From: Escherichia coli
GTDB taxonomy: Bacteria > Pseudomonadota > Gammaproteobacteria > Enterobacterales > Enterobacteriaceae
DNA length: 64,000 bases
Direction: 5' to 3' (one strand)
Assembly (NCBI RefSeq): GCF_044324875.1
Contig: NZ_CP172185.1
Part shown: in pieces, positions 2,902-48,007 of the stretch
How the letters are laid out: each line of letters begins with the position of its first letter
Position numbering within the stretch: the stretch's first letter is position 1
The notes under the pieces: generated by a model
The model's input: the letters and a program-made list of their open reading frames with translations, nothing else
What the model was told of the DNA's origin: nothing
The model's database searches: none
Translations under genes and position numbers: made by a program

Positions 2902-3702
2902 AGCTGGGGGACTGGTATCTTTCAGCTCACTGATTTTGTTGCTGAACCTGATATATCCTTCGGTTTTCCACAACCAGGGGAAGGGTGTCATCATAAGGCG
3001 TGATGACACCCTGAATTCCCATCCTGTATCTGCAGAAAATTTTTCGTAAATAAATTAATTTAATAACTAAAAAGAAAATACAATAAGCAAAATATCAATT
3101 ACAGCATGTTCGTTTGTTTAAAGAACCTGCTGGTCCTGCCATTAATATTACCTGCTGATTGCTTCACATCCGGATTCCTCGCACTGCGCGCGGGTTATTG
3201 TTTCGTTTTCGGCCACGGGGTCGCCAGGGCTCTGTTTGCAGGCCATGATGGCCTGACCTGTACTGTTTCTCAGGCACTGAGATGTCCGTTTACGCCATTT
3301 GTTCCCGGATATCCTTAACCTCTGACGTTTGTTCCCTGCCCCTCTGTCTGATAACGAATACGCTCACAACGCACAGTACTGAACAATACCGACAACAACA
3401 TGTCTTACATGAAATTCGCTGTAACATCCACCGGAAAACATTTTCAGATATCGGATGAGGTACTACTTCCATTGACAGCGCGAGGTAACAAAATTGATGG
3501 TAACTCTGACCATTAACCGTAAACCGCAGGGTATTTTCAGTAAATCACCGGCAACGCCGCTGCAGGATAAAACGGACACAGCATACAAAATGAAGGCCGG
3601 TGACCAGATACCACAGTTGAACGATAAACAGAAACCTGCTGATAAAACACCGTGGCGACATGACAAAACGCCAGAGCAAAAACCGTAAGCGCATTATTCG
3701 TC

Positions 3703-4005
3703 TTGTGGAACTCTGGCCTGAGTCATTCAACCGGGAAAAAAACAAAACCACTTAAAGTGGGGATACCTGACGACCTGATACAGGATATCGCCATCCGAGA
3801 ACTGGCGTTTGGCGCTGGTACATTACATGCAGCAGTGGCGTCTTATGTGCAGTCTCCGTGCTATTACCGTGCGTTAATAGCAGGTGGCGCCCGTTACAAC
3901 CTGAACGGTCAGCCGTGCGGGGAAGTGACACCACAGGAACAGAAAGAGGCAGAGACCCGTTTAATGATGCTGAATGACCGACGAAAAGACAGAAAACCTC
4001 GTTGA
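3703..4005 (+). CDS. FinO/ProQ-like RNA-binding domain protein (possibly frameshifted with upstream ORF 3494..3688)
   Basis: KPLKVGIPDDLIQDIA...YNLNGQPCGEVTPQEQKEAETRL resembles the ProQ N-terminal FinO domain (RPLKIGIFQDL...DLDGNPCGELDEQ); track start is TTG. Confidence 0.4.
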   Translation: MWNSGLSHSTGKKTKPLKVGIPDDLIQDIAIRELAFGAGTLHAAVASYVQSPCYYRALIAGGARYNLNGQPCGEVTPQEQKEAETRLMMLNDRRKDRKPR

Positions 4006-42815: not shown

Positions 42816-42840
42816 TTCCCCTTAATCAAGCAAACATAAA

Positions 42841-42877
42841 AGCCAACCTTAAGAACTTAAGGTTGGCTTAATTTTGC
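42841..42877 (+). terminator. Rho-independent terminator after adiC
   Basis: AGCCAACCTTAAG-AAC-TTAAGGTTGGCT stem followed by a T-rich tract; supports eptA start at 42919 rather than the upstream TTG. Confidence 0.55.
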
Positions 42878-45236: not shown

Positions 45237-46328
45237 ATGCGTTTTCTGCGCCGACCAATATCGCTGCGCCAACGGCTGATATTGACCATTGGGGCCATTT
45301 TGTTGGTGTTTGAGCTGATCAGCGTCTTCTGGCTATGGCATGAAAGTACCGAGCAGATTCAGCTGTTTGAGCAGGCGCTACGCGACAATCGCAACAACGA
45401 TCGCCACATCATGCGTGAGATCCGCGAGGCGGTCGCCAGCCTGATCGTCCCCGGCGTCTTTATGGTCAGCCTGACGCTATTTATCTGCTATCAGGCGGTA
45501 CGCCGCATCACCCGGCCGCTGGCGGAGCTGCAAAAAGAGCTGGAAGCGCGCACCGCCGACAACTTAACGCCTATTGCCATTCACAGCGCCACCCTCGAAA
45601 TCGAAGCGGTGGTTTCGGCGTTGAACGATCTGGTCAGTCGCCTGACCAGCACGCTGGATAACGAAAGGTTGTTTACCGCTGACGTCGCGCACGAACTGCG
45701 AACGCCACTGGCGGGGGTGCGTTTGCATCTGGAACTGCTGGCGAAAACGCATCACATTGATGTAGCACCGTTAGTGGCTCGACTTGATCAGATGATGGAG
45801 AGTGTCTCCCAGCTGCTGCAACTGGCGCGTGCCGGACAGTCATTTTCTTCCGGGAATTATCAACATGTAAAACTGCTGGAAGATGTCATTCTCCCCTCGT
45901 ATGACGAACTCAGTACCATGCTCGACCAGCGACAGCAAACCCTGCTATTGCCAGAGAGCGCCGCCGACATCACCGTTCAGGGTGATGCAACCCTGCTGCG
46001 GATGTTATTGCGAAACCTGGTAGAAAACGCCCATCGTTACAGCCCGCAAGGCAGCAACATTATGATTAAGCTGCAAGAAGATGGCGGAGCGGTCATGGCC
46101 GTTGAAGATGAAGGACCGGGTATTGATGAGAGTAAATGCGGGGAGTTGAGTAAAGCGTTTGTACGTATGGACAGCCGTTATGGCGGGATTGGTCTGGGGT
46201 TAAGTATTGTCAGCCGCATTACACAGTTGCATCACGGGCAGTTTTTCCTGCAAAACCGGCAAGAGACTTCCGGCACGCGGGCCTGGGTACGGCTGAAGAA
46301 AGATCAGTACGTGGCAAACCAGATATAA
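45237..46328 (+). CDS. basS: Sensor kinase BasS (PmrB)
   Basis: Track start is TTG at 45228; first ATG at 45237 gives 363 aa. Confidence 0.9.
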   Translation: MRFLRRPISLRQRLILTIGAILLVFELISVFWLWHESTEQIQLFEQALRDNRNNDRHIMREIREAVASLIVPGVFMVSLTLFICYQAVRRITRPLAELQKELEARTADNLTPIAIHSATLEIEAVVSALNDLVSRLTSTLDNERLFTADVAHELRTPLAGVRLHLELLAKTHHIDVAPLVARLDQMMESVSQLLQLARAGQSFSSGNYQHVKLLEDVILPSYDELSTMLDQRQQTLLLPESAADITVQGDATLLRMLLRNLVENAHRYSPQGSNIMIKLQEDGGAVMAVEDEGPGIDESKCGELSKAFVRMDSRYGGIGLGLSIVSRITQLHHGQFFLQNRQETSGTRAWVRLKKDQYVANQI

Positions 46329-46393
46329 AGAAAGCTGCTGACCACCAGCACGCTGAACACGGTAGTTAAACTTTCATAAACACGGTTTTTCAT
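46304..46393 (-). CDS. pmrR: PmrR, 29-aa membrane peptide; not in ORF track
   Basis: Manual translation MKNRVYESLTTVFSVLVVSSFLYIWFATY; 3' end overlaps the basS 3' end convergently. Confidence 0.8.
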   Translation of the reverse strand: MKNRVYESLTTVFSVLVVSSFLYIWFATY

Positions 46394-46504
46394 TGCACTC
46401 TCCTCCGTTAACCTGGAGGAGAGTATGCGCGTCAGAGATTAAGTGAACCTTAAGACTTCAATTGGCCTGATAAGACAGCGTCACATCAGGCCATCCGTTT
46501 CAGC

Positions 46505-48007
46505 TTATTCATCAATTCGCGGATGTTGCTGCACCAGGCGAGTACGTTTCGCCTGCAAATCGGCAATCTCGTGGTCAATATCATCGATTTTCTGCTCGAT
46601 ATTATCGTAATGCTCGACGAGAATTTCCTTCGCTTCCTGTATATCTGACGCCGCCGGTGTCGCACCTTTCAACGGACGATTCGCCGTCTCTTTCATGGTT
46701 ACGCCGGTGATTAAACCAACCACCGCCACTACCATCAGGTAATAGGCAGGCATCATCAAATTCTGCGAGCTTTCGACCAGCCAGGCCGCCAGCGTTGGCG
46801 TCAGACCGGCAACCAGCACCGAAATATTAAATGCCGCCGCCAGCGCGCTGTAACGGATATGCGTCGGGAACATCGCTGGCAAGGTAGAGGCCATAACGCC
46901 CGTAAAGCAGTTAAGGATCACCGCCAGCATCAGTAACCCGGCAAAAATCAGGCCGATGACGTTACTGTTAATCAGAATAAACGCCGGGATCGCCAACACA
47001 AACAGTGCAACACTACCAAGTAGCACAAACGGACGACGGCCAAAACGGTCACTCAGCAAGCCCATCACCGGCTGGACAAACAGCATACCGATCATAATGG
47101 CGATAATAATCAGCACCCCGTGGTCTTCGGAGTAATGCAGGTTATGCGACAAATAACTCGGCATATAGGTCAGCAACATGTAGTAAGTCACGTTGGTGGC
47201 AATTACCAGACCAATACATGTCAACAGGCTGCGCCAGTATTTAGTGGCAATCTCTTTAAACGAGACTTTCGGGCCATCCTGCAAACCTTCGCGGTCGCCC
47301 TGCTCCAGTTTATCAACATGCTGCTGGAACGCCGGAGTCTCTTCCAGCGCATGGCGCAGGTAAAGCCCGATAATCCCTAACGGCAGAGCAATAAAGAACG
47401 GAATACGCCAGCCCCAGTCGAGGAAGTTCGCTTCGCCGACAATGGTCGAAATTAACACCACCACGCCCGCACCCAGCACAAACCCGGCAATAGAACCGAA
47501 GTCCAGCCAGCTGCCCATAAATCCACGTTTACGGTCAGGGGAGTATTCCGCAACAAATATCGACGCCCCGGTATATTCACCGCCGACCGAGAAACCTTGT
47601 GCCATCTTACAGATCAACAGCAGAATCGGTGCCCAAATACCAATCGTGTCGTAGGACGGTATTAAGCCAATACAGAAGGTACTGATCGACATAATCACAA
47701 TAGTGATAGCGAGGATCTTCTGGCGACCATATTTATCGCCCAACATACCAAAGAAGAGTCCACCAAGCGGTCGAATCAGAAAGGGAACGGAGAAAGTGGC
47801 AAGTGCAGCAACCATCTGCACGCTGGGGTCAGCCCCCGGGAAAAAAACTTTACCTAATGCGTAAGCAACAAAACCATAAACACCAAAATCGAACCATTCC
47901 ATTGCATTACCCAGTGATGCTGCGGTAATGGCTTTACGCAATTTACCGTCATCAATAATGGTGACATCACGAAGGGTAATCGGTTTTACTTTTTTCCTTT
48001 TCAGCAT
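46505..48007 (-). CDS. proP: Proline/glycine-betaine:H+ symporter
   Basis: Start trimmed to MLKRKKVKPITL; 500 aa. Confidence 0.95.
   Translation of the reverse strand: MLKRKKVKPITLRDVTIIDDGKLRKAITAASLGNAMEWFDFGVYGFVAYALGKVFFPGADPSVQMVAALATFSVPFLIRPLGGLFFGMLGDKYGRQKILAITIVIMSISTFCIGLIPSYDTIGIWAPILLLICKMAQGFSVGGEYTGASIFVAEYSPDRKRGFMGSWLDFGSIAGFVLGAGVVVLISTIVGEANFLDWGWRIPFFIALPLGIIGLYLRHALEETPAFQQHVDKLEQGDREGLQDGPKVSFKEIATKYWRSLLTCIGLVIATNVTYYMLLTYMPSYLSHNLHYSEDHGVLIIIAIMIGMLFVQPVMGLLSDRFGRRPFVLLGSVALFVLAIPAFILINSNVIGLIFAGLLMLAVILNCFTGVMASTLPAMFPTHIRYSALAAAFNISVLVAGLTPTLAAWLVESSQNLMMPAYYLMVVAVVGLITGVTMKETANRPLKGATPAASDIQEAKEILVEHYDNIEQKIDDIDHEIADLQAKRTRLVQQHPRIDE

Follow-up and report, generated by a model that had tools for sequence, protein, structure and literature searches.

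A conserved hairpin over the pmrR Shine-Dalgarno sequence, built in part from the gene's own promoter, as a probable filter against read-through transcripts

We analysed a 64,000-nucleotide (nt) stretch of Escherichia coli DNA (contig NZ_CP172185.1 of assembly GCF_044324875.1; hereafter the window) that contains pmrR, the gene for a 29-amino-acid (aa) membrane peptide that inhibits LpxT. In this locus the pmrR ribosome-binding site lies within the 3' arm of a stable hairpin that is conserved across genera, and the hairpin's position relative to the PmrA-dependent promoter suggests what it may do. We propose that it probably, if by no means certainly, filters transcripts by where they began, silencing only read-through RNA. 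The 3' arm would be the Shine-Dalgarno (SD) sequence of pmrR, and the 5' arm would be the DNA from the -10 element to the start site of the gene's own promoter. PmrA-driven transcripts would start where the stem meets the loop (about 46414/46415) and be free of the 5' arm, leaving the ribosome-binding site open, and PmrR would thus be produced when PmrA is active. RNA entering from proP, or from uvrB in other genera, would bear both arms, so that its ribosome-binding site would be buried and no by-product PmrR made. The elements concerned are these:

46304..46393, minus strand: pmrR coding sequence, 29-aa membrane peptide inhibiting LpxT (open reading frame (ORF); RefSeq b4703; NCBIfam NF033224)
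46397..46406, minus strand: hairpin 3' arm GGAGGAGAGU, bearing the GGAGG/AGGAG SD, 3 nt before the AUG (inverted-repeat search, folding)
46407..46414, minus strand: hairpin loop AGGUUAAC (inverted-repeat search), its sequence and length varying among relatives
46415..46424, minus strand: hairpin 5' arm ACUCUCCUCC, the anti-SD, overlapping the end of the -10 hexamer and the stretch to the predicted +1
46414..46415, minus strand: predicted PmrA-dependent pmrR start, 7-8 nt past the T of the hexamer, at the end of the 5' arm or the first loop base
46422..46427, minus strand: -10-like hexamer CATACT (family consensus nAnACT), 10 nt after the PmrA box
46438..46454, minus strand: PmrA/BasR box CTTAAGGTTCACTTAAT, a perfect YTTAAK-N5-YTTAAK match

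The two arms form a perfect inverted repeat (46397-46406, ACTCTCCTCC; 46415-46424, GGAGGAGAGT), each 10 nt long, 100% complementary and 8 nt apart, and the RNA in pmrR sense reads 5'-ACUCUCCUCC-AGGUUAAC-GGAGGAGAGU-GCA-AUG. The original prediction, made from the letters of the window, had described a perfect 9-10 bp inverted repeat immediately 5' of the pmrR start with a GGAGG SD inside it; the repeat is indeed there, at 10 bp and reaching 46424 rather than 46423, and the SD is located in its 3' arm. Folded in pmrR sense the hairpin has an energy of -19.9 kcal/mol (z = -4.45, with none of 200 shuffles as good), and in basS sense -20.3 kcal/mol (z = -3.58). Perfect 10-bp hairpins are much commoner in the window than in shuffles: nine sites have a perfect 10-bp inverted repeat with a loop of 3-12 nt, amounting to 19 10-mer matches, compared with 0.58 +/- 0.96 in each shuffled window.

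Comparative data came from 80 pmrB loci, one genome per species, about 55 of which carry a PmrR-like ORF (29-30 aa) antisense to the pmrB 3' end. A Salmonella locus (L085, from a named NCBI assembly) was added through the PmrB protein cluster, the BasS genome scan having given none. The hairpin was found in Escherichia, E. fergusonii, Salmonella (L085), Citrobacter, Klebsiella, Raoultella, Kluyvera, Kosakonia, Phytobacter, Trabulsiella, Yokenella, Pluralibacter and others, about 55 species of Enterobacteriaceae overall. Its 3' arm lines up with the GAGGA/GGAG core in every genus, and its loops range from 4 to 14 nt with sequences unrelated between relatives. There are 43 distinct 5' arms among 57 sequences, and the arms change together (CUCUCC/GGAGAG, CUAUCC/GGAUAG, CUGUCC/GGACAG and CUGCCC/GGGCAG). 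Pairs were counted in an alignment made without regard to structure, in which the 5' side was set at a constant distance from the invariant T of the -10-like hexamer and the 3' side was taken from MAFFT columns. This pseudo-alignment replaced a first MAFFT alignment that had gaps within the 5' arm; Phytobacter-type sequences are out of register in it, and the pair counts are consequently conservative. In 49 distinct sequences 76.5% of the cells in the helix are standard pairs, and the covariation score is 0.273, compared with 0.148 +/- 0.012 in shuffles (0 of 500 reached the observed value) and 0.05-0.14 when the partner was slid. One helix pair is seen as AU 16 times, CG 15, GC 6 and GU 6. 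Because the covariation stands above the shuffles, the hairpin is not a chance repeat.

The same data bear on the idea that the inverted repeat acts as DNA, either as an operator for a dimeric protein or as a promoter cruciform. A perfect palindrome centred a few bases past the predicted start would suit such a role, but what is kept is complementarity and not sequence, with pairs changing together across the 43 distinct 5' arms, and G-U pairs are tolerated. We find this explanation barely credible, and a DNA operator was rejected on the ground that base-pairing complementarity is conserved rather than sequence.

The predicted start at 46414/46415 follows from the PmrA box and a conserved hexamer 10 nt beyond it. 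Only two perfect YTTAAK-N5-YTTAAK matches occur in the window, at eptA (42856-42872) and at pmrR (46454..46438). In a -10 element, positions 2 (A) and 6 (T) are the most critical, and the pho box likewise lies 10 bp upstream of the -10 region. In an alignment of 54 distinct promoter-leader sequences, A2 and T6 of the nAnACT hexamer are invariant, and across 54 pmrR sequences the spacing from box to hexamer is 10 nt, save for one 1-nt insertion. The same 10-nt spacing is found at 20 eptA loci (A2 in 20/20, T6 in 20/20 and A5 in 19/20), and arnB in MG1655 has a PmrA box, 10 nt and then TAAAAT, the same geometry as pmrR. Thus pmrR, eptA and arnB all have the box 10 nt upstream of a -10 element, as in a PmrA-activated promoter. 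From the start of the box to the pmrR ATG there are 58-63 nt, mostly 59-61, in the sequences studied. Just 13 nt separate the box from the start of the hairpin's 5' arm, which geometrically excludes a PmrA-activated start upstream of the arm; in 32 of 57 sequences the arm ends 7 or 8 nt past the invariant T, at the predicted +1 or +2. At pbgP the -35 element lies within the PmrA box, and PmrA has been modelled on the PhoB-sigma4 complex (PMC4660055). Deletion of the PmrA box alone abolishes PmrR function in E. coli (PMC8129183).

This geometry has a predicted consequence for the RNA. The leaders that would result, 19-24 nt long, fold with a mean of -1.5 kcal/mol, compared with -17.2 kcal/mol for the stretch from box to ATG. 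Opening a 16-nt window over the SD and start codon was computed to cost 20.3 kcal/mol in read-through RNA and 5.2 kcal/mol in RNA from the predicted +1 in E. coli, and 12.1 and 4.5 kcal/mol, respectively, in K. pneumoniae. A comparison with the Salmonella pmrR leader, which had been proposed together with the original prediction, showed that the hairpin is kept there at a similar cost (21.6 and 6.7 kcal/mol). PmrA-driven pmrR mRNA should lack the 5' arm and therefore be open, at a computed cost of about 5 kcal/mol. The suggestion that the stem occludes translation thus stands in part: the SD is in the stem and would take about 20 kcal/mol to free, but this would apply only to RNA arriving from upstream, the gene's own mRNA being predicted to be open.

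A different possibility is that the hairpin sits inside the 5' untranslated region (UTR) of the PmrA-dependent mRNA and holds down or adjusts its translation, acting for instance as a thermometer or standby-site device. This would account for an SD held in a stable stem, for a hairpin conserved with covariation and for the finding that PmrR dosage matters both ways (PMC11429745), and the Rfam STnc630 model does start upstream of the PmrA box. Yet the 5' arm, 13 nt from the box, shares bases with the conserved -10-like hexamer, a start upstream of the arm conflicts with the geometry at eptA and arnB and with a PhoB-like box at -35, and the limits of STnc630 are those of the proP-basS intergenic region, taken from co-immunoprecipitation cDNA with no mapped 5' end. 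We consider a repressive 5'-UTR hairpin quite improbable.

A filter on transcript origin presupposes RNA that crosses the hairpin from upstream, and published maps of RNA 3' ends supply it. Positions were converted between the window (w) and MG1655 (g), in which pmrR is on the plus strand, by w = 46393 - (g - 4332116):

46392..46393, minus strand: mapped RNA 3' end, 3-5 nt past the hairpin (Term-seq, PMC7815308; TRS, PMC10687069)
46204, minus strand: primary 3' end assigned to pmrR, with a 3' UTR of ~100 nt antisense to basS (MG1655 4332305; PMC10687069)
46041, minus strand: Rho-dependent termination peak, antisense to basS (MG1655 4332468 (+); PMC7815308)
46463..46493, no strand assigned: REP-like palindrome between the proP stop and the PmrA box, with 14-nt arms that are 86% complementary

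The Term-seq 3' end, printed with its flanking sequence, is at MG1655 4332116 (+), the A of the pmrR AUG (PMC7815308), and the TRS peak is at 4332117 (range 4332112-4332120); the authors of the latter assign the end to the upstream gene, whose transcripts are seen by SEnd-seq to stop inside the pmrR coding sequence (PMC10687069). The Rho region at 4332468 is a strong one, with a score of 8.58 and a significance of 2.7e-37, and reads upstream and downstream of it change from 248/32 without bicyclomycin to 400/443 with it (PMC7815308). It lies ~350 nt past the hairpin, and convergent transcription normally gets ~290 nt into basS. Upstream-gene RNA that crosses the hairpin therefore exists, as seen both from the 3' end beyond the stem and from the 248 reads before the Rho site. 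The mapped 3' ends just after the hairpin also indicate that pmrR/proP-strand RNA adopts this fold in vivo. From the proP stop to the hairpin there is no other 3' end in the Term-seq and TRS data, including at the REP-like palindrome.

The stem itself is GC-rich, with 10 bp, 6 G-C pairs and about -20 kcal/mol on both strands, but a terminator scan calls it on neither strand, and its flanks lack a U-tract (GUGCAAUGAAAAAC in pmrR sense, AUGCGCGUCAGAG in basS sense). A 3' end just past the stem is present on the pmrR/proP strand only, where transcription runs on to the Rho region; on the basS strand neither published data set has a 3' end at the hairpin, basS being poorly expressed under those conditions. 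A classical or bidirectional intrinsic terminator was rejected for want of a U-tract on either strand, and with it the earlier proposal of a bidirectional terminator shared with proP. The hairpin looks like a 3'-end-protecting stem for proP mRNA rather than an intrinsic terminator, and the 3' end beside it may be a product of processing. In E. coli, read-through RNA would run antisense into basS until stopped by Rho ~350 nt on and would then be trimmed back to the hairpin, which would become the stable 3' end of proP mRNA.

Could forming or protecting the 3' end of the upstream mRNA (proP or uvrB) be all that the hairpin does, with its SD arm incidental for pmrR? The sole 3' end reported downstream of proP does fall 3-5 nt past it, and trimming of Rho-terminated RNA to a stem is a known route, with a Rho region lying downstream here. 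In Salmonella, which has no REP-like palindrome, the PmrA box begins 8 nt past the proP stop codon, and the hairpin is thus the first stable stem after proP. Against this, besides the missing U-tract on both strands, stands the way in which the hairpin follows pmrR. Escherichia, Salmonella and Citrobacter have proP as the co-directional neighbour upstream, and Klebsiella, Raoultella, Kluyvera, Kosakonia and relatives have uvrB; the hairpin is kept in both settings. It lies 0-8 nt from the pmrR ATG in nearly all sequences, although the pmrB stop shifts widely; its position is fixed to that ATG and to the predicted +1, not to the upstream stop. It is also kept in K. pneumoniae, where an A-run is followed by a GC-rich stem that runs right up to the PmrA box, with the T-rich sequence of the box acting as its tail; from its sequence this stem resembles a bidirectional uvrB/pmrB terminator fused to the box. 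Under a loose criterion, 35 of 55 loci have a stem whose end is no more than a few bases from the PmrA box, and some of these are clear bidirectional terminators. That the hairpin persists despite the switch between proP and uvrB and despite a pre-existing terminator suggests a tie to pmrR rather than a role as the neighbour's terminator alone. In Pantoea sp. A4 (L062), the sole locus with a divergently transcribed upstream neighbour, there is no hairpin. A role confined to the upstream 3' end, though the likeliest of the alternatives, is in our judgement unlikely.

Several related arrangements were also seen. Apparent fusions of a terminator to a PmrA box occur at 3703-3721 (minus strand) of locus L025 and also in L032, L043, L044, L045, L049, L054 and L060. 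In the window itself, 42840-42876 (plus strand) holds a perfect 13-bp palindrome (AAGCCAACCTTAA / TTAAGGTTGGCTT) followed by AATTTTG (-23.8 kcal/mol, z = -6.1). The 3' arm of this palindrome makes up the first half of the PmrA box of eptA (42856-42872), and the published primary 3' end of adiC mRNA, MG1655 4335633, corresponds to window position 42876; the arm's overlap with the box and the position of this 3' end indicate that the terminator of adiC is fused to the eptA PmrA box. Within the pmrR coding sequence, 46336-46350 (minus strand) is a terminator-like site, UGCUGGUGGUCAGCA then GCUUUCUUUA, which is also in the STnc630 consensus structure and has no mapped 3' end in the Term-seq and TRS data.

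The survey also bears on annotation. Klebsiella, Raoultella, Kluyvera, Kosakonia, Phytobacter and relatives (L013-L065) have a 30-aa ORF at the position of PmrR (for example MQKINFREYLAVATALVIIVAFFHQWVLTF; one such ORF is at 3553-3642, minus strand, of L025). These ORFs share with pmrR the PmrA box, the spacing, the hairpin and a C-terminal W-x-L-[ST]-[FY] motif and go unrecognised by NCBIfam NF033224, and the genes may be unannotated. Separately, L083 (GCA_016412205.1), whose PmrB is labelled Salmonella enterica, has a Citrobacter-type PmrR peptide and leader (MKTRIYESLTTVFSLLIVSSFLYVWVSSY); the label may be wrong, given its divergence from the main Salmonella cluster.

The strand on which the hairpin acts can be examined further with a published truncation series downstream of a BL21 pmrB allele (PMC8004244). 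The endpoints count from the pmrB stop, and because the one at +176 covers all of the pmrB-proP intergenic region (46329-46504), the map is fixed. The +86 endpoint is 46414, in the hairpin loop, with the 5' arm, the -10 hexamer and the PmrA box all lost; +103 is 46431, just past the -10 hexamer, with hairpin and hexamer kept and the box lost; and +126 is 46454, the last base of the box. Colistin resistance was absent with +86 bp, partial with +103 and full with +126, and pmrB mRNA differed 315-fold in the series; the endpoints had been picked from an RNA fold of the pmrB strand, without reference to the pmrR promoter (PMC8004244).

These results could be read to mean that the hairpin is a 3'-UTR terminator or stabiliser of eptA-basRS mRNA, which would explain why 86 bp of downstream sequence is too little for the BL21 pmrB allele to confer colistin resistance. 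The +86 endpoint cuts the hairpin and gives no resistance, the basS-strand fold is equally good at -20.3 kcal/mol, pairing over all 14 pairs is slightly better in basS sense, and pmrB mRNA differs 315-fold. On the other side, no U-tract follows the stem on the basS strand, a 3' end is unreported there (with basS poorly expressed in those conditions), and the half-life of pmrB mRNA was equal for +86 and +126 (PMC8004244). At +103, where the full hairpin is present, resistance is only partial, and full resistance requires the whole PmrA box, a pattern better matched by a need for the pmrR promoter than by a need for the hairpin. Wobble pairs in the core likewise favour the pmrR strand: among nine core pairs, 33 wobbles pair in pmrR sense only and 13 in basS sense only. 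This asymmetry is weak strand evidence, and the published 3' ends are the stronger. Folding of the stretch from box to ATG has a mean of -17.2 kcal/mol in pmrR sense and -15.9 kcal/mol in the other (the former better in 34 cases and worse in 20), a modest difference (Wilcoxon p = 0.011) in data that are non-independent. We think a basS 3'-UTR element less likely still than a repressive 5'-UTR hairpin.

Several points weigh against the filter model. SD function also constrains the G's of the 3' arm and so confounds the wobble asymmetry, and when all 14 pairs are counted it is the basS sense that pairs slightly better (79.0% compared with 76.5%). The 42-46 nt from box to ATG are nearly the sole free non-coding sequence here, and with so little available any hairpin selected for another reason would include the SD. 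The pmrR start is a predicted one, and the SMRT-Cappable-seq and Salmonella D23580 tables have no entry for pmrR or its coordinate. A pmrR promoter reporter was not induced by low Mg2+ in E. coli (PMC11429745), and the behaviour of this promoter in K-12 is incompletely understood. The hairpin-free exception in Pantoea sp. A4 is a single locus, and in lineages with a strong upstream terminator, as judged from sequence, the amount of read-through that would need filtering is uncertain. There is nonetheless a reason to prevent accidental expression, because PmrR made without stress slows growth (PMC11429745).

We also considered a wider role in which the stable RNA ending at the hairpin, made of the proP 3' region and recovered in Salmonella as STnc630 with 27-fold Hfq enrichment, is no mere by-product and couples stress control of proP or uvrB to PmrAB by convergent read-through. 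Read-through from proP (osmotic, stationary-phase) or uvrB (SOS) would enter basS within limits set by Rho and the hairpin, and this antisense transcription would lower basS expression while the hairpin keeps PmrR off. Such coupling might also explain the control of pmrB mRNA by downstream sequence in the BL21 colistin study, but we regard it as doubtful, on a par with the repressive 5'-UTR hairpin.

The remaining features define the locus, in which the gene order in E. coli is adiC - eptA - basR - basS / pmrR / proP:

45237..46328, plus strand: basS (pmrB) coding sequence, the sensor kinase of BasSR/PmrAB (ORF list; RefSeq b4112, MG1655 4332181-4333272)
46304..46328, both strands: convergent overlap of pmrR and basS, 25 nt, with both stop codons inside it (ORF coordinates)
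46505..48007, minus strand: proP coding sequence, the co-directional gene upstream of pmrR (ORF; RefSeq b4111, MG1655 4330502-4332004)
46297..46462, minus strand: match to Rfam RF02052, STnc630 (181.4 bits, gathering score 55, model positions 1-166 of 166, E = 7.5e-39)

A 311-nt query spanning the hairpin region has a match of 90-100% identity in 5,408 of 5,426 complete E. coli genomes, with a single match below 95%, and every one of the 5,408 matches carries the RefSeq labels pmrB, pmrR and proP. The product of the 29-aa ORF, MKNRVYESLTTVFSVLVVSSFLYIWFATY in the ORF list of the window, matches NCBIfam NF033224 (an equivalog model) over its full length, 1-29, at 74.2 bits with a cut-off of 30, and the Salmonella peptide scores 65.2 bits. 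PF28106 is the Pfam entry given for PmrR in precomputed annotation, and the Pfam copy that we searched had no PmrR model. The assignment to the PmrR family agrees with a PmrA-box promoter 61 nt before the ATG and with a position convergent with the pmrB 3' end. As predicted, pmrR ends about 25 nt inside basS, the exact overlap being 25 nt (46304-46328). Its length varies by genus, however, from +57 nt to an 8-nt gap (a 7-nt gap in Salmonella), and given this variation the overlap is not the conserved feature of the locus.

Much of this ground was known. The overlap in E. coli, the convergent layout and the PmrA-box promoter have been described (PMC8129183), the 90-bp ORF with its 25-bp overlap was noted together with predicted stem-loops 3' of pmrB (PMC8004244), pmrR-basS is listed as a convergent excludon (PMC12288877), and membrane localisation and deletion phenotypes of PmrR have been reported in E. 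coli (PMC11429745). The hairpin, too, is already in Rfam, but its role is undescribed in the literature examined. What is added here is the conservation and covariation of the hairpin, the box-to-hexamer geometry and the link to published 3' ends and the Rho region. The literature search found nothing on ProQ with the proP 3' UTR, on STnc630 in main texts or on pho-box spacing. PmrR determines which group lipid A receives, by blocking LpxT so that EptA can add phosphoethanolamine, which affects polymyxin and colistin resistance and bile sensitivity (PMC8129183), and too little or too much PmrR impairs growth (PMC11429745). If our proposal is true, the filter explains how pmrR can be under strict PmrA control although it lies only ~110 nt (E. 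coli) or ~70 nt (Salmonella) past a strongly regulated gene. The mechanism would not be new in kind, and its value lies mainly in getting the annotation right and in offering a clean example, open to testing, within a regulon of clinical relevance.

The closest named entity is STnc630 (Sittka et al. 2008), which is at the same locus and on the same strand, and whose consensus structure already has the pmrR hairpin; the window matches its covariance model over the full length. STnc630 came from Salmonella Hfq co-immunoprecipitation cDNA of the proP/basS intergenic region (27 reads, compared with 1 in the control) and was undetected by northern blot (PMC2515195). It is itself an uncharacterised small-RNA candidate bounded by intergenic limits, and it covers the pmrR promoter, leader and ORF together with the proP 3' region.

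In design, the pmrR hairpin most resembles the devices of mobile elements and phage. Protection of IS10/Tn10 from activation by outside (read-through) transcription was reportedly described by Davis, Simons and Kleckner in 1985, and McPheeters et al. are said to have described the hairpin arrangement at the ribosome-binding site of the phage T4 lysozyme gene (e) in 1986. In IS10 and IS50 and in T4 e, soc and gene 49, the ribosome-binding site pairs with a segment upstream of the gene's own start. Transcripts from the own promoter start within the repeat and are translated, and those from outside carry both arms and are silent. Like IS10, IS50 and T4 e, the pmrR hairpin pairs the ribosome-binding site with a segment ahead of the gene's own predicted start. 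Unlike IS10 and T4, pmrR is a chromosomal gene for a small regulatory peptide under a two-component activator, and its start is predicted from promoter geometry; its 5' arm coincides with the stretch from -10 to +1, and its stem also marks the 3' end of an upstream mRNA.

The latter property recalls a second class of structure. Transcripts terminated by Rho can have their 3' ends set by stem-loops that block 3'-to-5' exonucleases. As in such exonuclease-blocking stems, a theme of PMC7815308, the pmrR hairpin has no U-tract, a 3' end nearby and a Rho region beyond, but it differs from the others in being made of the downstream gene's promoter and SD. The left end of IS200 combines a terminator against impinging transcription with an SD-sequestering stem-loop (PMC4513863), and the Klebsiella-type pmrR loci are likewise two-layered, with a terminator next to the PmrA box and the SD hairpin after it. 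The stem-loop of IS200, however, lies in the transposase mRNA and represses it constitutively, whereas the mRNA that pmrR makes from its own promoter is predicted to escape.

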